This document shows positions 8,412 to 63,037 of a DNA stretch of 64,000 nt, piece by piece. This stretch comes from an uncultured Clostridia bacterium (GTDB lineage: Bacteria > Bacillota > Clostridia > Christensenellales > UBA1242). The notes beneath the pieces are model-generated. The model was not told the DNA's origin. It saw only the letters and a list, made by a program, of their open reading frames with translations, and did not search any database. The position numbers were made by a program, and so were the translations under genes. The stretch lies in contig CALWKF010000001.1 in NCBI GenBank assembly GCA_944381215.1, positions 65,201 through 129,200 on the forward strand, read 5' to 3'. Numbering within the stretch: position 1 is the stretch's first letter; every line of letters starts with the position of its first letter.

Positions 8412-8452
8412 ATAAATATCAAATATTATTTATATCATTAGGAGGCCAAAAA

Positions 8453-8512
8453 ATGGAGCACTCTTTTAATACAAAAATGCATAAAAACCTACGGGGGGGG
8501 GGCGCTTTCTAG
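8453..8512 (+). other. 5' leader ORF (MEHSFNTKMHKNLRGGGAF*) carrying G10; the true N-terminus of paralogue A when the tract is 9 or 12 G
   Basis: AGGAGG at 8440-8445, ATG at 8453. With 10 G the frame stops at TAG 8510-8512. Deleting one G reads through as ...NLRGGALSSLIISCIAILILCAVFGLSFAQF..., in frame with ORF 8553-10772. Confidence 0.7.
8493..8502 (+). repeat. poly(G)10 homopolymer (candidate slipped-strand switch)
   Basis: Counted directly: acGGGGGGGGGGcgc. Confidence 0.9.
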
Positions 8513-8552: not shown

Positions 8553-10772
8553 GTGTTCGGCCTATCCTTTGCTCAATTTATCAAAAACTCCAGCAACCCA
8601 GTAAACGCATTTACCGTTAGTAGCTCAAATGCGGTCATAGTTCCTCAACTATGGAACAGCAGTACACAGTCTTTTAACCGTGATGCAATGTCTACGCTAC
8701 TTAAGTACATATCAAGCGATGGTTCCATTAATAGAGTAAACACCACTCAACAAACCGCGGCAGATATTCGTGGATACACCTATAACGGCAAAACAAATAG
8801 TCAGGCAGTAGTAGTAACCATAGGCGATTATCAGTGGCAAGTAGTCTACCTTACTCGCACAAACAACACCAGTGGTGATCGTATAGCCACACTCTTAATG
8901 GTAGACAATGGTGGCACCGCTTCATTTAGTCACGGTGGATATGATAGAGGTAACAACTGGACAGGTGCTTATCCCTCCAATATGTATGGTGCTAGTTACC
9001 TTCGTGCTGTTACGCTAAACAATGGTGGAACGTACGCTAATATTACTGTTACTTATAGTAATTCATACTCAACTGCAACAGCAACTCAGTCCTCATCTCA
9101 TAAATACGCTTTATATACGGTAGCCTCACAAGGACTAACTAATTACTTAGTACAGCCTAAAAATGTATGGTATCAAACACGGGCTCAACTAACAGGCAGT
9201 GCTAATCCAGAAGGTTACACTTTAAACAACGAGTCTCTATCCACAACCATAAGTACAGGCTGGAACAACAATAATGCTTCTACTTACTCTTATCAATCTA
9301 AAGCCAACTACACGCAGTGGAGGAATGACTATCTCTGGTGTCCTAGCCTTTCAGAAACAGGTACAAGTAATTCTAAGTTAGGTATTTGGGAGTTATCCAC
9401 AACAGAACGTTCAGCTTCTACTGATTGGTGGTCGCGGTCTGGTGGCTATTCTAATTCGGACTCTGCTTACTACCTTGATTCCTCCGGCTCCAGCTGTAAT
9501 GACAGCGTTGTGCACTATAACAACGGCGTGCGGGTAGCGCTTCACTTAAATCTTGATAAAATTGCTCAAGATTTAACATACGCAATAACTGCCACATCGG
9601 ATACACAAAGTATCGTAGATAAAAATTCGTTAGAATACTACTTATTATTAAACGCCGAAGTTACCTTTACATATACTGCAAACCCCAATTATTATATAAA
9701 TCAAGTTCAAATTGGTTCTACTACAGTAACTAATTTCCAAACTACAATACCTAGTAGTTTTACTAACGCGGGTACTTTTCAATACAAGGCATATAGAGTA
9801 AATAATAGTAATAGTGTAAGTGTGGTGTTAAAGTCACTTACTACCGATTTAAATTTATCGTGTAGTGCGCAATCATACATTAATATCTCCACCGAAAACG
9901 CGGCGGTAACCGTAAATAGTTATAATCGAACGAATTATTTTTCTACGACCGCTACAATTTCCGTTCAACAAAATGTGGCATACACCCAGAGGTTTAGATT
10001 ACCAAGCCAAAACTGGATAGATATTAGCACAACTGCCTCGGGCGATGGTTATGTCGGCAGTATTTATTACCAGTACACGACCGCCAATAATGTTATAACC
10101 CTAAATTTCGAAAACCTCACCTTAGGCACAGTTTTTGAGGTCATCTTCAGCGGAGATGAGAAACCACTCTCATACACTGCAACGGGTGGCACGGCGACCT
10201 TCGAGGAATTTATAGATGATGAGGGCTACACCAATATAATCGTGCGCCCAGCAGAAGGCTATTATGTGAACACGATTACGGTCGACAACGTGGCCTTTAC
10301 TGTCGAGTACTACCGCGCCGAAATCATGGGGGCGGGCAATGCTCGAATTATCGGCTACACCGTAAAGGACACCAACAACGTGCTCGACTTGTGGCTCGTT
10401 GGGCAGTACGACAACTCCAACATCGTTTTCAACCTCTCCACAACTCGCCCTACCTACAGAGTCCCCGCGACAGGTGGGGCGGTTACTGGCACGGTAGTTA
10501 CTGCTGGTGCTGGCGGTGAAGCGCGCATTGTGGGCTTTGACTCAAGCGACACCGCAGATACTGACACTCTTACCTTTATCGCGGTAAGTTACTCGGGCTA
10601 CGCCTTCTCGGGCTGGGAGGTCGACGGCCAAATTCTCTCGGGCTACGGTTCGAATGCCTCGATTCCGTATTCGCTAGTTAAGGACAAAGTGGTAACCGCA
10701 GTCTTTACACCCACTTCGAATAACTCCGCAAACGGCACCACCGACAACCCCTGGGGCTCCGACATCGCCTAA
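8553..10772 (+). CDS. large secreted/surface protein, paralogue A: WWSRSG...GVRxALHLNL head (DUF6273-like) plus InlB-B-repeat-like C-terminus; as sequenced it lacks its signal anchor
   Basis: 739-aa ORF starting at an internal GTG with no RBS. Residues ~20-340 are highly similar by eye to the 60559-62511 product. The C-terminal YSGYAFSGWEVDGQ...VTAVFTP is a Listeria/Bacteroides-type B-repeat motif. Confidence 0.8.
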   Translation: MFGLSFAQFIKNSSNPVNAFTVSSSNAVIVPQLWNSSTQSFNRDAMSTLLKYISSDGSINRVNTTQQTAADIRGYTYNGKTNSQAVVVTIGDYQWQVVYLTRTNNTSGDRIATLLMVDNGGTASFSHGGYDRGNNWTGAYPSNMYGASYLRAVTLNNGGTYANITVTYSNSYSTATATQSSSHKYALYTVASQGLTNYLVQPKNVWYQTRAQLTGSANPEGYTLNNESLSTTISTGWNNNNASTYSYQSKANYTQWRNDYLWCPSLSETGTSNSKLGIWELSTTERSASTDWWSRSGGYSNSDSAYYLDSSGSSCNDSVVHYNNGVRVALHLNLDKIAQDLTYAITATSDTQSIVDKNSLEYYLLLNAEVTFTYTANPNYYINQVQIGSTTVTNFQTTIPSSFTNAGTFQYKAYRVNNSNSVSVVLKSLTTDLNLSCSAQSYINISTENAAVTVNSYNRTNYFSTTATISVQQNVAYTQRFRLPSQNWIDISTTASGDGYVGSIYYQYTTANNVITLNFENLTLGTVFEVIFSGDEKPLSYTATGGTATFEEFIDDEGYTNIIVRPAEGYYVNTITVDNVAFTVEYYRAEIMGAGNARIIGYTVKDTNNVLDLWLVGQYDNSNIVFNLSTTRPTYRVPATGGAVTGTVVTAGAGGEARIVGFDSSDTADTDTLTFIAVSYSGYAFSGWEVDGQILSGYGSNASIPYSLVKDKVVTAVFTPTSNNSANGTTDNPWGSDIA

Positions 10773-23925: not shown

Positions 23926-24792
23926 TTGATAAAAGCACAGATTATAAAAGGCGTCGGTGGTGATTTTTGGGTGAGGGATGACACTCGCGTTTTGGTGGTA
24001 AAAGGGCGAAAAAAATTAAAGGAAGATAAGCTCTATATCGGAGACTATGTCGAGGTAGATGAGGAGGCAAAGGTTATCGAAAAATTACTCCCTAGGAAGA
24101 ACTTTTTGGTGCGCCCGCCTCTTGCAAATGTGGAGCAGGCATTAATTATTCTTGCCCCAATACCCAAGCCCGATTTGTTGCTTGTTGATAAACTTTTGGT
24201 AAAATTCTTTTCGCTAAAAATCGAACCCGTGATTGTAATAAACAAGATTGACCTGTGCGCCAATGCCGTAATCAGCGAGGTTACCGCGCAGTACGGGAGT
24301 ATTTGTAAAATCGTATTGATTTCGGCACTCGACTATAATACTACATCGGTTACCCTCAATCCCTTGCTCGCAAATAAATTTAGCATTTTGACTGGGCAGT
24401 CGGCTGTGGGGAAGACGAGCATTCTAAACTGCCTAAAACCCGATATTACGAGCGTTACTGGGGAGCTTAGCCGAATTGGTCGGGGGAGGAACACAACTCG
24501 CCACAGCGAAATTTTCGTGCTAGACTCTGGGGCAATGATTGCTGACACTCCTGGATTCAACGCGTTCGAGTTGGACGGCTTTACCCCCGAGGACATCGTG
24601 GACAACTACATCGATTTTCATATATTTAGTAGAGAATGTAAATTCAATAACTGCAATCACATTAGCGAGAGTTTTGAGGACTGCGCCGTAAAGCGAGCAG
24701 TAAGTAGTGGCGAGATTACGCAGGCGCGCTACGATAGATATAAGACACTTTTTAATTCCGCATTAGAAAAGGAGAAAAAGCAATATGGATAA
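23926..24792 (+). CDS. rsgA: ribosome small subunit-dependent GTPase A
   Basis: NKIDL...GQSAVGKTSILN...DTPGF and a C-terminal zinc knuckle CKFNNCNHISESFEDCAV. TTG start behind GAGGTG. Confidence 0.9.
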   Translation: MIKAQIIKGVGGDFWVRDDTRVLVVKGRKKLKEDKLYIGDYVEVDEEAKVIEKLLPRKNFLVRPPLANVEQALIILAPIPKPDLLLVDKLLVKFFSLKIEPVIVINKIDLCANAVISEVTAQYGSICKIVLISALDYNTTSVTLNPLLANKFSILTGQSAVGKTSILNCLKPDITSVTGELSRIGRGRNTTRHSEIFVLDSGAMIADTPGFNAFELDGFTPEDIVDNYIDFHIFSRECKFNNCNHISESFEDCAVKRAVSSGEITQARYDRYKTLFNSALEKEKKQYG

Positions 24793-25456
24793 AAAAATAT
24801 TAATCGCCCCCAGTACCGACCCGTGCCCGATTGGAGATTTAATTGAGTACGGCCGTGAGCTCTTGCGCGAGGGCGCAGACTGGATTCATTGCGACATAAT
24901 GGACGGACACTTTGTCGAGCGCAAAACCTTCGATGAGATTGTTTTGAGCCTGCTTAGTAAGCGTGTAAACGGCATTATGGACGTGCATCTAATGGTGGAG
25001 GACCCGATTGAAAAATTGCATCTTTATGCAAAAGCGGGAGCCAATAACATCACCGTGCATTACGAGGCGTTGAAGGGAACGATTGCTACCATTAACGCGA
25101 TTAATGAAATCCACACACTAGGGTGCAAGGCTGGGTTGTCGATAAAGCCTGAGACTCCTGTATCCGTAATTGAGAACTTCCTGCCTTTTGTAGATATTGT
25201 GCTAGTTATGAGTGTAGAGCCAGGCAAAAGCGGGCAGAAGTTTATCAACGACAGTCTCTCTAAAATCGCAAAACTTAATACCTTGCGAGAGCAGAACGGC
25301 TATAACTTTTTAATCGAGGTCGACGGCGGAATAAACGATCAAACGGCAGGGGCGGTAGTCTCTTTGGGAGCCGACGTGCTAGTCGTAGGCAGTGCTATAT
25401 ATTCCTCACATAACCGCGCCCAACTTATCCGAACTCTTAAAACTATAAATGATTAA
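24785..25456 (+). CDS. rpe: ribulose-phosphate 3-epimerase
   Basis: IHCDIMDGHFV...MSVEPGKSGQKF...VDGGIN motifs. Overlaps the rsgA stop. Confidence 0.95.
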   Translation: MDKKILIAPSTDPCPIGDLIEYGRELLREGADWIHCDIMDGHFVERKTFDEIVLSLLSKRVNGIMDVHLMVEDPIEKLHLYAKAGANNITVHYEALKGTIATINAINEIHTLGCKAGLSIKPETPVSVIENFLPFVDIVLVMSVEPGKSGQKFINDSLSKIAKLNTLREQNGYNFLIEVDGGINDQTAGAVVSLGADVLVVGSAIYSSHNRAQLIRTLKTIND

Positions 25457-25522
25457 ACCCTTACATTCCGCACAATTTCTTTGAGTCTATCATATAAAAC
25501 TATATACATAAGGGGGAATATT

Positions 25523-25594
25523 GTGCGTATAATTGTTATAAAGGCACCTAAAATACTACGGGGGCTGTTTAGATTACTCTTTCGTAAACAATTA
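25523..25594 (+). CDS. spoVM: SpoVM-like micro-protein (23 codons as sequenced; the C-terminal half looks frameshifted)
   Basis: Not in the ORF track (too short). AAGGGGG RBS, GTG start. MRIIVIKAPKILRG resembles B. subtilis SpoVM MKFYTIKLPKFLGG (from memory). It sits in the B. subtilis position between rpe and the divergent rpmB. Confidence 0.5.
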
Positions 25595-25603
25595 GCAAAT
25601 TAA

Positions 25604-25650
25604 AAAATATACCCAAGTCAATTACTATAAACTTAGGGTATATTTTTATT
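25604..25650. terminator. bidirectional terminator between the spoVM-like ORF and the 207-aa orphan
   Basis: atataccc (25606-25613) pairs with gggtatat (25636-25643). A run before, T run after. Confidence 0.55.
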
Positions 25651-26269
25651 TTGAGTAATCAAGTTCATGCTCTTTTCCAATTAATATGGGCAGGTAAATG
25701 TAACTTTTACCATATAACTTTTCTACAGGTTGGAGTTTGGGTAACTGCTTGTCAATTTGTCGGTTAAACTCTTTTTTCTTTACAACCGAGTACATAATTT
25801 CGCGCATTGTTTGCGTGTTCTGCTTTACTAATTGTTCACGCATTTTTTCGGTCTGCCAGTAGGGTTTTGCTTCGCCGTTTTTGCAGTAACTTAATGAAAT
25901 ATGCTTATCAAGCGTTTGAATAACTTTAGGGAAGTCATAGTTAAAGATTTTGTAAAAACAGCCGTTTTGCCGTATGGTTTCTAGTAATTCATACCCAAGA
26001 GTATTGTCATCTTTAAGTATTATATATAGGTTCAATTTACCTTTTTCAATATCCCAAACCATCTCTAGCCCAAACAAATTGCGACGCCCCTTTAGACTGT
26101 ATTTGGGTAATGCAGGCCCCTTATTTTTACCTGTAGTTAGGTCGTTGTACGTAATATAGTTTTGATTTATGTCATTTAAGTACTGCTTTATGCACTCCAG
26201 CATATTCTCTTTACTGGGATTCTTTGTATTTTGTCTAAGTGAGTAATCGCTACCACACATCATTGCCAT
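25646..26269 (-). CDS. hypothetical protein (orphan, AT-rich)
   Basis: 207-aa ORF, GGAGA about 10 nt upstream. No recognisable motif. Composition is visibly AT-richer than the flanks. Confidence 0.6.
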   Translation of the reverse strand: MAMMCGSDYSLRQNTKNPSKENMLECIKQYLNDINQNYITYNDLTTGKNKGPALPKYSLKGRRNLFGLEMVWDIEKGKLNLYIILKDDNTLGYELLETIRQNGCFYKIFNYDFPKVIQTLDKHISLSYCKNGEAKPYWQTEKMREQLVKQNTQTMREIMYSVVKKKEFNRQIDKQLPKLQPVEKLYGKSYIYLPILIGKEHELDYSK

Positions 26270-26497
26270 TTTTGTTTCATCTCCTGTAATCGATATAAAT
26301 ATATCACAATATAACCTTTTTGTCTATATCTAATAATGAAATTTTTAACAACTTTGTATCAAAAAGCAAACTGGCACATGTCTTTTAGTTCTTTATTTTT
26401 CTATAAGATAGTCAAAAGCCAATAAAACAAGTGTTCTATTGTAATGTTAGTAAAGGGAACAAAAAAAAGACCGCTAATATGCAGTCTTGATTATAAA

Positions 26498-26695
26498 TTA
26501 TTCAGCCTTCATTTTTTTGATGCAACGGGTGCAAAGCTTCATTTTGCATTTGTTACCGTTTTCGGTAGTTACAGTTACTGTCTGCAAGTTTACTTGCTTT
26601 GGTGAAGAAGTACGACGCTGTACCCATTGACTTTGACGGTGCACCTGATTGGCAGCCATCTGTGTCTTACCGCAATTTTCACATACTTTGCTCAT
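26498..26695 (-). CDS. rpmB: 50S ribosomal protein L28 (Cys-containing, zinc-ribbon form)
   Basis: Start at the internal Met MSKVCENCGK behind an AGGGGG RBS. VNLQTV and CTRC match the L28 pattern. Divergent from asp23/yloV as in Bacillus. Confidence 0.8.
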   Translation of the reverse strand: MSKVCENCGKTQMAANQVHRQSQWVQRRTSSPKQVNLQTVTVTTENGNKCKMKLCTRCIKKMKAE

Positions 26696-26926
26696 AAAAA
26701 CACCCCCTGTTGAGATTTCTATATTCGCTCGATAGAACCCTAATTTTGCACTATCGAAAAAATGGTATAATGATTGTATCATTTTTTTATAATTTTTGCA
26801 AGCCTATTTGCATATATTTTTTAAAGAAAATTAAATTTATAAAAAAATTTGGCCAAAACACTTGATAAATTCGGCATTTAGTAGTAAAATAAATCTTGTA
26901 CCATGTACACAAACTAGTGAGGTTTT

Positions 26927-27277
26927 ATGTCAGTTACCACGACTAACTATTATGGTAAAATATACATAGCAGATGACGCAATCGCAGCGATTGCCGCAGC
27001 GGCTGCCTTAGACTGCTATGGTGTAGTTGACCTTGTATCAAAAAAACTTAGCGACAACTTTGCCGACCTATTTAAGAAGCAACAGTTAGGTAAGGGTGTC
27101 AAGATCATTACGAACGAAAATAGGATTTTCATAGACTTATTTGTAGTCTTAAAATATGGAGTGTCGATTAGTGCTGTTGCCGAATCTCTAAAAAAGGCGG
27201 TCAAGTATCGCGTGGAGGAGTTTTCTGGGATGATAGTCGACACCGTAAATATTAATGTAATAGGTGTAAGGGTTTAA
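26927..27277 (+). CDS. Asp23/Gls24 family envelope stress protein (YloU-like)
   Basis: YGKIYIADDAIAAIAAAAALDCYGVV is a typical Asp23 N-terminus. Followed by yloV. Confidence 0.9.
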   Translation: MSVTTTNYYGKIYIADDAIAAIAAAAALDCYGVVDLVSKKLSDNFADLFKKQQLGKGVKIITNENRIFIDLFVVLKYGVSISAVAESLKKAVKYRVEEFSGMIVDTVNINVIGVRV

Positions 27278-57911: not shown

Positions 57912-57973
57912 CGTGGACAAGCAACTTTATTTACTTTATACGCATATACCTATTTATTAAAGGGGGTGCGTAC

Positions 57974-58681
57974 TTGATAATAGAAACTTTTGTCACTTTT
58001 ATGAATAAGATAATGTTGTTCTCATCGTATGTTGACCACGCATCTAGTTTCCCAAAGACCTTGACTCCCGAAGAGGAAAAATACTATATAGACCGAATGC
58101 GCGCAGGAGATACCGAGGCCAAAAACATCCTAGTCTCGCATAATTTAAGGCTGGTGGCTCATATAGTTAAAAAGTACAGCAACAGCTCAAAAGACGCCGA
58201 CGACCTAATCTCAGTCGGCGCAATCGGGCTAATTAAGGCGATAAATAGCTTTTCCCCCGAAAAGGGCGCACAACTGTCGACCTACGCCGCGCGCTGTATC
58301 GAAAACGAAATTCTTATGCTGTTTAGAGCAAACAAAAAACATCAGGGAAATATCTCCTTGGAGGAAACAATAGGCACGGAAAAGGACGGAAACGAAATAA
58401 TGCTCGAGGACGTAATCTGCGACATCGATACCGATATCGTGGAAATGGTCGAGAGCAACATTTTGACAGAAAAACTAATAAATATTATAAAAGGTTCGTT
58501 ATCAAATCGGGAGTACAAGATTCTCTGTATGCGCTACGGCATCGGGGGCGGGGTGGCCTATACCCAGCGCGAAGTTGCGAAAAAACTAGGCATATCTCGT
58601 AGCTACATCAGTAGGCTCGAAAAGAAGGCCATCGAAACGGTCCGCGCCGAGGTGCACGCCAAGAAAATTTACGCAGATTAA
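57974..58681 (+). CDS. sigK: sporulation sigma factor, pro-sigma-K type (uninterrupted)
   Basis: Pro-sequence plus SYVDHASSFPKTLTPEEEKYY...GD.EAKN.LV.HNLRLVAHIVKKY...YAARCIENEILM closely parallels B. subtilis SigK from memory. AAGGGGG RBS, TTG start. Confidence 0.85.
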   Translation: MIIETFVTFMNKIMLFSSYVDHASSFPKTLTPEEEKYYIDRMRAGDTEAKNILVSHNLRLVAHIVKKYSNSSKDADDLISVGAIGLIKAINSFSPEKGAQLSTYAARCIENEILMLFRANKKHQGNISLEETIGTEKDGNEIMLEDVICDIDTDIVEMVESNILTEKLINIIKGSLSNREYKILCMRYGIGGGVAYTQREVAKKLGISRSYISRLEKKAIETVRAEVHAKKIYAD

Positions 58682-60362: not shown

Positions 60363-60422
60363 ATGAAGTACTCTTTTAATACAAAATTGCATAAAAACCT
60401 ACGGGGGGGGGGCGCTTTCTAG
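60363..60422 (+). other. relic leader ORF (MKYSFNTKLHKNLRGGGAF*) carrying G10, now a uORF in the 5' leader of paralogue B
   Basis: About 75 bp near-identical to 8459-8530. No good RBS. With 9 G it would run only to a TAA 14 codons later, not into the gene. Confidence 0.6.
60403..60412 (+). repeat. poly(G)10 homopolymer, second copy
   Basis: Counted directly: acGGGGGGGGGGcgc, in the same context as 8493-8502. Confidence 0.9.
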
Positions 60423-60558: not shown

Positions 60559-62511
60559 ATGATAAAATTATCCAAAACTAAAACGAGTTTAATAGTAACC
60601 CTTGTCTGCATTTTCTGTATAGCCACACTATTAACCGCTTTTTTATTTACCCCGAAAGATATGGTAAACGCATTTACCAGTGTCGATAGTTCGAACGCAG
60701 TCGTTGTGCCTCAATTATGGGGTGAGTCCAGCCAGTCTTTTAACTATGATGCAATGTCAACACTACTAAGTTACATATCCAGTGATGGCACAATTAATGG
60801 GGTAAATACTACCCAGCAGACCGCCGCAGACATTCGCAACTATACCTACGGAGGAAAAGAAAGTGGAAAATCAGTCGTAGTAACTCTAGGTGATTACCAA
60901 TGGCAAGTAGTATACCTAACTAGGACAGGTAACACCACCGGCGACCGTATAGCCACATTACTAATGGTTAATAACGATGGTACAGCTAGTATAACTCCTG
61001 GTGGCTTCGATAGTGGTAGTAACTGGACAGGTGCTTATCCCTCTAATATGTATGGTGCTAGTTATATGCGTGCAGTTATCTTAAATAATGGCGGAATATA
61101 TGCTAATATTACTGCTGATAGTAACAATTCATATTCAACAGCATCAGCTACTCAATCTGCATCGCACAAGTACGCATTATATACTGTAGCCTCACAAGGA
61201 CTAACTCATTACTTAGTACAACCTAAAAATGTATGGTACCAAACCCAAGCACAGTTAACAGGCAGTGCTAATCCCGATGGATACACTCTAAACAACGAGT
61301 CATTATCTACCAGTATAAGTACAGGCTGGTACAGGAACTACGCTTCTGGTTACTCATACCAAACAAAGAACTATTACACCCAATGGGGGAATGACCATTT
61401 GTGGCTACCCAGCCTTTCAGAGACAGGTACAAGTAATTCTGAGTTGGGTATTTGGGAGTTGTCCACAACAGAACGTTCGGCTTCTAATGAGTGGTGGTCG
61501 CGGTCTGGTTGCTATAATGATTCGTACAGTGCTTACTTCCTTTATCCTTCCGGCTCCATCTCTCGTATCGGCATGGTGCACACTAGCTACGGCGTGCGGC
61601 CTTCGCTTCACTTAAATCTTGACTCTGCATTGAATAATTTAACAAATGATATAATAGTAGAGTCAAACGATTCTACTCAAGGTACAGTTTCAGGCGGTGG
61701 AGTGTATGACTTTGAGTATACGGGCACCACCACAATCACTGCACTTGCAAATTATGGCTATGTATTCGACTACTGGCAAGACAGTAGCGGGAACAAAATT
61801 TACCAAAACCCATATACTTTTCCAGTAACTAAAAGCGAAACATATACTGCATATTTCCGTGAACCTATAATTACAATTACATCCTCAAATGGTGGTGCCG
61901 AAATTACTCGTACAGACACCGATCCCGGCAACGTGTCAATCACTTATGGCCTAACATTTTCTGCAAATAATTATATATCGGGCATAATAATCAATAGCGG
62001 AGTTGTCCAAGATATCGGGAGCCTGAGTGGTGATTTAATAGTTGATGACACTTGCACCGCCATAAGTTACCGCACCAACACAACGGGCTCGCAACTCATA
62101 CTTGAAATTTTTCAAGTTACCAACGATATCACCATAAACCTAATATTTGTCGACATTGCCCAAAGTTACACCCCCGCCAGTGGTGGCACTAGTATTACGG
62201 GTGTCGCATTGCAAGTGAGCGGAGGCAATGGCGCGACCTTTGAGGCGGTAGGAGAGGCTCGAATCACAGGCTACTCCCAAGCCGAAAACATCACCTACGT
62301 GCACGTGAGCGCAGTCCCTTCGAGTGGCTACTATTTCGTAGGCTGGCAGACTAGCGACGACACCGACCTAAGCGATTACGGAAGCAGTGCCGACATCCCA
62401 TACAACCTAATCGAGGGAAAAATACTCACCGCTGTCTTCGCCCCCAAAACTTCTCAAAATGCCGACTCCACGCTAGACAACGCAGGGGACCAGTTTGCAC
62501 CCACTAGTTAA
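60559..62511 (+). CDS. large secreted/surface protein, paralogue B (DUF6273-like head plus B-repeat-like domains), intact with its own signal anchor
   Basis: MIKLSKTKTSLIVTLVCIFCIATLLTAFLF signal anchor. LWLPSLSE...WWSRSG...GVRPSLHLNL. GYVFDYWQDSSGN and GYYFVGWQTSDD repeat motifs. Confidence 0.85.
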   Translation: MIKLSKTKTSLIVTLVCIFCIATLLTAFLFTPKDMVNAFTSVDSSNAVVVPQLWGESSQSFNYDAMSTLLSYISSDGTINGVNTTQQTAADIRNYTYGGKESGKSVVVTLGDYQWQVVYLTRTGNTTGDRIATLLMVNNDGTASITPGGFDSGSNWTGAYPSNMYGASYMRAVILNNGGIYANITADSNNSYSTASATQSASHKYALYTVASQGLTHYLVQPKNVWYQTQAQLTGSANPDGYTLNNESLSTSISTGWYRNYASGYSYQTKNYYTQWGNDHLWLPSLSETGTSNSELGIWELSTTERSASNEWWSRSGCYNDSYSAYFLYPSGSISRIGMVHTSYGVRPSLHLNLDSALNNLTNDIIVESNDSTQGTVSGGGVYDFEYTGTTTITALANYGYVFDYWQDSSGNKIYQNPYTFPVTKSETYTAYFREPIITITSSNGGAEITRTDTDPGNVSITYGLTFSANNYISGIIINSGVVQDIGSLSGDLIVDDTCTAISYRTNTTGSQLILEIFQVTNDITINLIFVDIAQSYTPASGGTSITGVALQVSGGNGATFEAVGEARITGYSQAENITYVHVSAVPSSGYYFVGWQTSDDTDLSDYGSSADIPYNLIEGKILTAVFAPKTSQNADSTLDNAGDQFAPTS

Positions 62512-62748: not shown

Positions 62749-62976
62749 TTAGAAAAGCGTTTGCGTAATTGTGCCAGTGTCCGAAATTATTCGATTTCTG
62801 CACCACCAGTTTGAATTGTTGTTAATGTTATCATTAAGGGTCGTTACTCCAGCGAGTGCGATTAGGGCGATTAGCAAAATTATTAGAATATTGGAGTTCG
62901 TCGCAAGGTCGGTATTGGTCGACCCCGCCCACACAGAAATCAACAGCACGATGACTAAGGCTTGCGAAATGGTCAT
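62749..62976 (-). CDS. hypothetical small membrane protein
   Basis: GGGAG 6 nt before the internal ATG (comp. 62974-62976). Two hydrophobic segments and Asn-rich loops. Confidence 0.45.
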   Translation of the reverse strand: MTISQALVIVLLISVWAGSTNTDLATNSNILIILLIALIALAGVTTLNDNINNNSNWWCRNRIISDTGTITQTLF

Positions 62977-63037
62977 AGTCTGCTCCCAAAACTTTTTAAG
63001 TGGTATATGCAAAAGCAAAAAAATTTGTGAGTAACGA

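Follow-up and report, generated by a model that had tools for sequence, protein, structure and literature searches.

Within the 64-kb stretch of DNA analysed here (hereafter, the window), a micro-ORF of 26 codons lies between rpe and a convergent rpmB (Table 1). Relatives of this locus were fetched with Rpe as the anchor, which gave 54 loci from a collection of species-representative genomes; the five closest (L001–L005, Rpe identity 61–91%) belong to one metagenome-assembled genome (MAG) labelled "uncultured Christensenella sp." and four MAGs of uncultured Clostridia. The same micro-ORF follows rpe directly in all five, and within the reach of its contig no relative departs from the order priA-rsgA-rpe-[ORF]-rpmB(-)-asp23-yloV. 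An earlier note on this DNA had placed the micro-ORF after rpe, facing rpmB and upstream of asp23/yloV, and this position was confirmed. SpoVM (stage V sporulation protein M) is a mother-cell peptide of about 26 residues in endospore formers. In B. subtilis, where the order is rpe-thiN-spoVM, convergent rpmB and then yloU-yloV, spoVM likewise adjoins a convergent rpmB, with rpe upstream and asp23 (yloU) and yloV beyond; unlike in B. subtilis, no thiN/yloS lies between rpe and the ORF of the window. Close linkage of spoVM to rpmB has been published (PMC5607322).

A 207-aa ORF with no Pfam or NCBIfam match, preceded by a sigma-70-like promoter, occupies the opposite strand between the micro-ORF and rpmB. 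L001 and L003 have homologues at the corresponding position (75% and 41% identity, respectively), and it is absent from L002, L004, L005, and L057/L058, where rpmB directly follows spoVM. This ORF is a lineage-variable insertion.

Table 1. Positions of the micro-ORF, its neighbours and the other features of the window mentioned in the text
Feature	Position	Strand	Remarks
ATG-initiated frame with G10	8453–8510		RBS AGGAGG at 8440–8445; G10 at 8493–8502
739-aa ORF	8553–10772		listed from GTG 8553
rpe	24785–25456	+	ribulose-phosphate 3-epimerase; PF00834 on the identical ENA contig; upstream neighbour
Putative -35-like element	25470–25476	+	GCACAAT ("AC" type); putative mother-cell (sigmaE/sigmaK-type) element
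Putative -10-like element	25491–25498	+	CATATAAA; fits the CATA-type box common to sigmaE/sigmaK promoters (PMC3789822)
RBS	25510–25516	+	AAGGGGG, 6 nt before the start; GGGGG or GGAGG likewise placed in every relative
spoVM-like CDS	25523–25603	+	GTG start, 26 codons and TAA; product MRIIVIKAPKILRGLFRLLFRKQLAN
G5 run	25560–25564	+	inside CGG-GGG-CTG (Arg13-Gly14-Leu15); length confirmed by a regex count
Hairpin terminator	25603–25652		stem-loop 25603–25647, T tract to 25652
207-aa ORF	25646–26269	-	between spoVM and rpmB
Promoter of the 207-aa ORF	26326–26298		sigma-70-like
rpmB	26498–26695	-	ribosomal protein L28; PF00830; convergent neighbour marking the spoVM slot
Motif upstream of sigK	~57930–57955		AC-N17-CATATACC, read by eye
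sigK (pro-sigma-K)	57974–58681	+	235 aa; N-terminal pro-sequence, no intervening element
Second copy of the G10 segment	60363–60425		~75 nt; G10 at 60403–60412
650-aa ORF	60559–62511		own ATG and signal peptide
Small ORF	62749–63018	-	hydrophobic; no Pfam match
Second exact CACAAW-N14-CATA match	63006–63029	-	upstream of the small ORF

Reading frame across the G run

Direct translation of positions 25523–25603 gave VRIIVIKAPKILRGLFRLLFRKQLAN followed by a stop, that is, 26 aa in frame as sequenced; the DNA here reads AAGGGGGAATATT GTG CGT ATA ATT GTT ATA AAG GCA CCT AAA ATA CTA CGG GGG CTG TTT AGA TTA CTC TTT CGT AAA CAA TTA GCA AAT TAA. The GTG start (25523–25525) behind AAGGGGG and the N-terminal half, MRIIVIKAPKILRG, were as the earlier note had given them. 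That note had also counted only four Gs (25560–25563), and had concluded that the sequence as it stands encodes 23 aa ending in CLDYSFVNN, that one extra G would be needed for 26 aa, and that the C-terminal half matches SpoVM only in the +1 frame. None of these statements survived: the run contains five Gs, the supposedly missing G is already present, the window sequence yields 26 aa unaltered, and all relatives carry a 26–28-aa frame, the 23-aa version occurring in none of them. In silico removal of one G changed the product to one ending in RGCLDYSFVNN, exactly the 23-aa product described before, which indicates that the earlier reading had dropped a G. The supposed frame break is a miscount, and there is no frameshift in the gene.

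The public ENA contig ERZ28614358 scaffold_338 was identical to the window over 6.7 kb, the ORF included, and an independent Logan assembly was identical through codon 9, where its contig ends. Metagenome contigs were scanned with a degenerate pattern of the N-terminal half only, so that the scan was not biased towards in-frame versions; it found no independent same-strain assembly across the G run, and returned two contigs of one further lineage. The mechanical ORF list contains the 26-aa frame within a TTG-extended ORF (25481–25603). This longer start was rejected, as it has no RBS, overlaps the promoter motif, and adds an extension that is not conserved, L001 having an in-frame stop five codons upstream.

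With no frameshift, the locus is evidence neither of sporulation decay nor of a mis-assembled homopolymer. It also gives no reason to doubt the G10 tracts of the window, on whose lengths the miscounted run had been thought to bear, and is uninformative on their reliability. The first of these tracts lies inside a 5' coding end, where ATG 8453 opens MEHSFNTKMHKNLRGG; with G10 this frame stops after 19 codons, and with G9 or G12 it runs for 772–773 codons via the signal/TM-like ALSSLIISCIAILILCAVFGLSF into the 739-aa ORF. It has the look of a phase-variable poly-G switch that is OFF, unless the homopolymer length is in error; the protein would be a large secreted/surface one. The second copy of the segment lies ~150 nt upstream of the 650-aa ORF, which encodes a paralogue of the 739-aa protein. 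The short ORF at this copy stops in every G-run phase, and the segment may have been left as a remnant or serve as a regulatory duplicate.

Conservation and similarity to SpoVM

Seven peptides were compared, namely those of the window, of L001–L005 (VRIIVIKAPKILRGLFKLLFRKQLAN, LRIIVIKAPKFLRGLFKLIFNKQYIKGA, VRIIVIKAPRFLRGLFKLIFHKQIAN, MRIIVIKAPKFLRGLFKLIFNRQLAK, and LRIIVIKAPKFLRGLFRLIFSKQILKSS, respectively), and of the further metagenome lineage (LRIIVIKAPKFLRGLFKLIFGKSVIK). The ORF is 26–28 aa long across these lineages, 16 positions are invariant, and the start codon, whether GTG, TTG, or ATG, has the same aligned position throughout, with a G-rich RBS ahead of it. In the relatives, the Leu-Arg-Gly-Leu at the G run is encoded with AGA GGA TTA, AGG GGG CTT, AGG GGA TTG, AGA GGG TTG, AGA GGT TTA, and CGA GGT CTG; because these synonymous codons differ, the frame is conserved with or without a G run. 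In a Nei-Gojobori comparison, pS was 0.44–0.91, with synonymous sites near saturation, and pN was 0.02–0.18, giving a dN/dS of ~0.03–0.09 where it could be computed; between the window and L001 there are eight synonymous differences and one non-synonymous difference. These substitution patterns mark the ORF as a translated gene under strong purifying selection.

When the seven-member clade was compared with 18 published SpoVMs using hhalign, the match had a probability of 97.2% (E = 4.3e-11), aligned from residue 1, with a profile-profile consensus identity of 52%. The comparison with B. subtilis SpoVM alone gave a probability of 87%, with 40% identity over residues 1–20. The sole NCBIfam match was NF033436 (SpoVM_broad), on which the window peptide scored 18.2 bits (E = 0.0018) and the relatives 15.9–27.2 bits (E = 1e-5 to 3e-6 in four, the best being 2.8e-6). 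The curated cut-offs, which are operational rather than biological criteria (31 bits for NCBIfam NF033436 and 20.6 bits for Pfam PF08183), were missed: the window peptide and all relatives stayed below 31 bits on NF033436, and Pfam gave no match for the 26-aa, the 40-aa, or the hypothetical 23-aa product. As controls, B. subtilis SpoVM reached 63 (SpoVM_broad) and 61 bits (PF08183), and nine published clostridial-type SpoVMs were run on NF033436. Three of the nine passed 31 bits, four scored 23–26 bits, and two had no match, so that the SpoVMs of C. thermocellum, Caldicellulosiruptor, C. novyi, Arthromitus, Ammonifex, and Symbiobacterium (6/9) fell below the cut-off; on Pfam, C. perfringens SpoVM reached 15.9 bits, below the gathering score of 20.6. 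The cut-offs are therefore conservative for Clostridia. PF08183 is a Bacillus-centred model. On NF033436, the window peptide lies slightly below, and its relatives within, the score range of accepted sub-threshold clostridial SpoVMs.

A test HMM was built from 21 published SpoVMs and applied to small ORFs taken from every start codon in six frames. The micro-ORF ranked first of the 1,680 small ORFs of the window, with 20.7 bits versus 8.1 bits for the best unrelated one. When the 54 rpe loci were searched with this HMM (10,532 small ORFs), matches came from the five close relatives only (19–27 bits), and nothing in the 49 more distant loci exceeded 9 bits. Most of those 49 belong to lineages without known endospore formation, such as Lactococcus-like bacteria, Verrucomicrobia, Chloroflexota, and archaea. 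BLASTP against B. subtilis SpoVM produced no alignment, and HMMER searches of PDB sequences with the peptide and its profile produced no match; the peptide is too short for such methods.

The N-terminal motif M-[KR]-h-x-x-[IVF]-[KRQ]-h-P-[KRG]-[FLC]-[LIVF] is found in MRIIVIKAPKIL, with I6, K7, and K10 in place without gaps, and an ungapped alignment from residue 1 pairs M1, R/K2, I6, K7, P9, K10, F/I11, L12, G14, and R/K17, including the Arg that had been matched to SpoVM R17 in the earlier note; the B. subtilis sequence given there is identical to PDB 2MVH chain A. Pro9 and Ile6 are present in every clade member, and Pro9 is the only invariant residue besides Met1 in the published set. In B. 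subtilis, Pro9 kinks the helix and is needed to recognise convex membranes, and Ile6 is a contact with SpoIVA (PMC5607322). B. subtilis SpoVM (P37817; PDB 2MVH/2MVJ; NF011327/NF033436, PF08183) has the same length as the window peptide, 26 aa, and shares with it M1, a basic residue 2, I6, K7, P9, K10, L12, G14, and R17; the window peptide differs at positions 8 (A for L), 11 (I for F), and 13 (R for G), and its C-terminal third is unlike that of B. subtilis and more basic (net charge +7 versus +5). Position 8 is Ala rather than Leu/Met/Val, and position 11 is Ile rather than Phe in the window and L001. Basic residues 10, 13, 17, and 21 form one helical stripe (i, i+3, i+7, i+11), as read from the sequence. 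In a crude test, the hydrophobic moment from residue 10 to the end did not significantly exceed that of shuffled sequences: it was 0.44 for the window peptide, with 24% of shuffles as high, 0.22–0.23 for the relatives, and 0.51 for B. subtilis SpoVM (p ~0.07). We therefore make no claim of an amphipathic helix after Pro9.

Clostridial SpoVMs (C. perfringens, C. acetobutylicum, C. thermocellum, Caldicellulosiruptor, Ammonifex, and others in Galperin et al. 2012; C. difficile in Ribis et al. 2017) have the same type of N-terminus, MRI(I/M)x(I/F)KxPKFL, and the same short basic tail, and like the window peptide they are rpmB-linked, seldom annotated, and mostly under the NCBIfam cut-off. SpoVMs range from ~21 to 28 residues (Galperin et al. 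2012, Fig. S4); the clade has the full 26–28 aa, as in Bacilli, whereas many clostridial SpoVMs have 21–25 aa. It is also set apart from them by its own invariant residues, A8, R13-G14, F16, and F20.

The micro-ORF had been described as unannotated, and this was borne out as far as it could be tested. Gene calls on the identical ENA contig pass from rpe straight to the 207-aa ORF, with none at the micro-ORF, and a protein collection of 5.8 billion clusters, queried with the 40-aa TTG-extended product, held nothing sharing even three 5-mers with it. The absence of annotation results from a length of 26 codons, which is under the limits of gene callers, together with the scores of this clade (IKAPK, LRGLF) under the curated model cut-offs. 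Automated annotation under-calls spoVM in Clostridia.

Putative expression signals

The sequence (G/T)CAC(A/C)A(A/T)-N14-CATA occurs in all seven lineages, 21–27 nt before the start codon; the L003 copy, identified by eye, has one mismatch. Around this motif, the spacers and the remaining intergenic sequence have diverged, and rpe ends 54–155 nt ahead of the start codon in the five relatives from the genome collection. According to Saujet et al. (2013, PMC3789822), -35 elements contain ATA for sigmaE and AC for sigmaK, and the two sigma factors share the CATA-type -10 element. The -35 of the window reads ACA ("AC" type), not the ATA typical of sigmaE promoters, so that the motif can be assigned to the mother-cell type, with sigmaE and sigmaK not distinguishable. 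We therefore regard it as a putative mother-cell sigma (sigmaE/sigmaK-type) promoter, a type of motif that B. subtilis spoVM also has. A scan for sigma-70 promoters found none near the micro-ORF. The exact core CACAAW-N14-CATA occurs twice in the 64-kb window versus 0.38 expected. The other exact match precedes a small ORF (Table 1), which could encode another mother-cell-expressed small membrane protein.

Downstream, the RNA of the terminator hairpin folds at -15.3 kcal/mol (z = -4.2), and 0/200 shuffles fold as well. A simple terminator scan found none near the micro-ORF, having missed this hairpin because of its long loop. A stem-loop followed by a T run stands just after the stop codon in five of six relatives, as read by eye without folding; in L002 there is only a weak GC-rich hairpin candidate. 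Owing to an A tract on its 5' side, the window hairpin could also terminate the convergent 207-aa ORF.

Possible role in sporulation

Homology, synteny, and conservation together support the identity as a spoVM-like micro-ORF put forward in the earlier note. What the sequence comparisons show is an intact, conserved micro-gene, homologous to published SpoVMs and equipped with an RBS and a terminator of its own. As the best explanation of the whole, we propose that positions 25523–25603 are an intact spoVM orthologue in Christensenella-like Clostridia, with a role in sporulation assigned by analogy, and we put the probability of this reading at roughly 0.86. If the gene works as in B. subtilis and C. 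difficile, spoVM would be transcribed during sporulation from the AC/CATA-type promoter with one of the mother-cell sigma factors, sigmaE or sigmaK; the SpoVM peptide would then insert into the outer forespore membrane, bind SpoIVA there, and contribute to anchoring the coat and cortex of the spore and to their organisation. The pro-sigma-K that had been noted in the window is also intact: it scored 295.5 bits on NF004471 (cut-off 252) and 290.4 bits on TIGR02846, just under the cut-off of 298.65. Upstream of sigK there is an AC-N17-type motif (Table 1). In the window, spoVM and pro-sigma-K are both intact, which is not the picture of a decaying sporulation pathway.

A true SpoVM homologue might alternatively have been kept in a non-sporulating lineage for another membrane role, such as modulation of an FtsH-type protease or curvature sensing in division. 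Descriptions of cultured Christensenella species call them non-spore-forming (PMC11536998), most Christensenellales MAGs fell into the non-sporulating class in a machine-learning survey, and the invariant residues of the clade (A8, R13, F16, F20) are its own; even in C. difficile, SpoVM binds SpoIVA yet is largely dispensable (PMC5607322). However, the motif conserved upstream of the ORF belongs to the mother-cell sigma type rather than the sigmaA type, and pro-sigma-K is intact in the same window. Sporulation genes have been reported in Christensenellaceae genomes, ethanol pre-treatment aided isolation (PMC11085954), and the same survey predicted some Christensenellaceae MAGs to be spore formers. 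We consider this alternative role improbable. A search for literature joining SpoVM with Christensenellaceae found none.

It is much less probable still that the peptide has no kinship with SpoVM and that its composition converged on that of SpoVM, in which case it would be some other conserved peptide, small, basic, and hydrophobic, for example a type I toxin or a leader peptide. The ORF is indeed short and of low complexity, and neither the curated family cut-offs nor BLASTP against B. subtilis SpoVM would by themselves have recognised it; but its likeness to SpoVM is positional rather than compositional, its genomic slot is that of known spoVM genes, and 12,000 other small ORFs yielded no comparable match. 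An Rfam scan of 25300–27000 likewise brought up neither an RNA element nor an antisense RNA family, giving only a chance-level Trp_leader match (26461–26530, E = 0.9). A spoVM frameshifted at the G run, whether truly, as a pseudogene where sporulation is being lost, or by mis-assembly of the homopolymer, is hardly credible, since nothing in the sequence supports it except after the artificial loss of one G, the 26-aa frame is intact in the window and in the identical public contig, with the Logan assembly agreeing to codon 9, and the relatives keep their frame with varied synonymous codons, several of them without any G run.

The main value of the analysis is therefore a correction: the gene is an ordinary, intact spoVM, not one broken at a homopolymer. 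With it, Christensenella-like gut Clostridia contribute a divergent clade (MRIIVIKAPKFLRGLF...) to the known SpoVMs, and because gene callers as well as the Pfam and NCBIfam thresholds miss this clade, presence/absence tables that serve to predict sporulation in MAGs will wrongly record spoVM as missing from it. Together with an intact sigK, the spoVM gene is one more hint that the lineage may retain the capacity for sporulation. More tentatively, we suggest that Christensenellales may keep, under strong purifying selection, a clade-specific SpoVM with a conserved mother-cell-type promoter and near an intact sigK, which current models systematically miss and which would reflect either cryptic endospore formation or a sporulation-independent role of SpoVM. 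If true, this would mean cryptic sporulation across an abundant, health-associated gut lineage, or a function of SpoVM outside sporulation.
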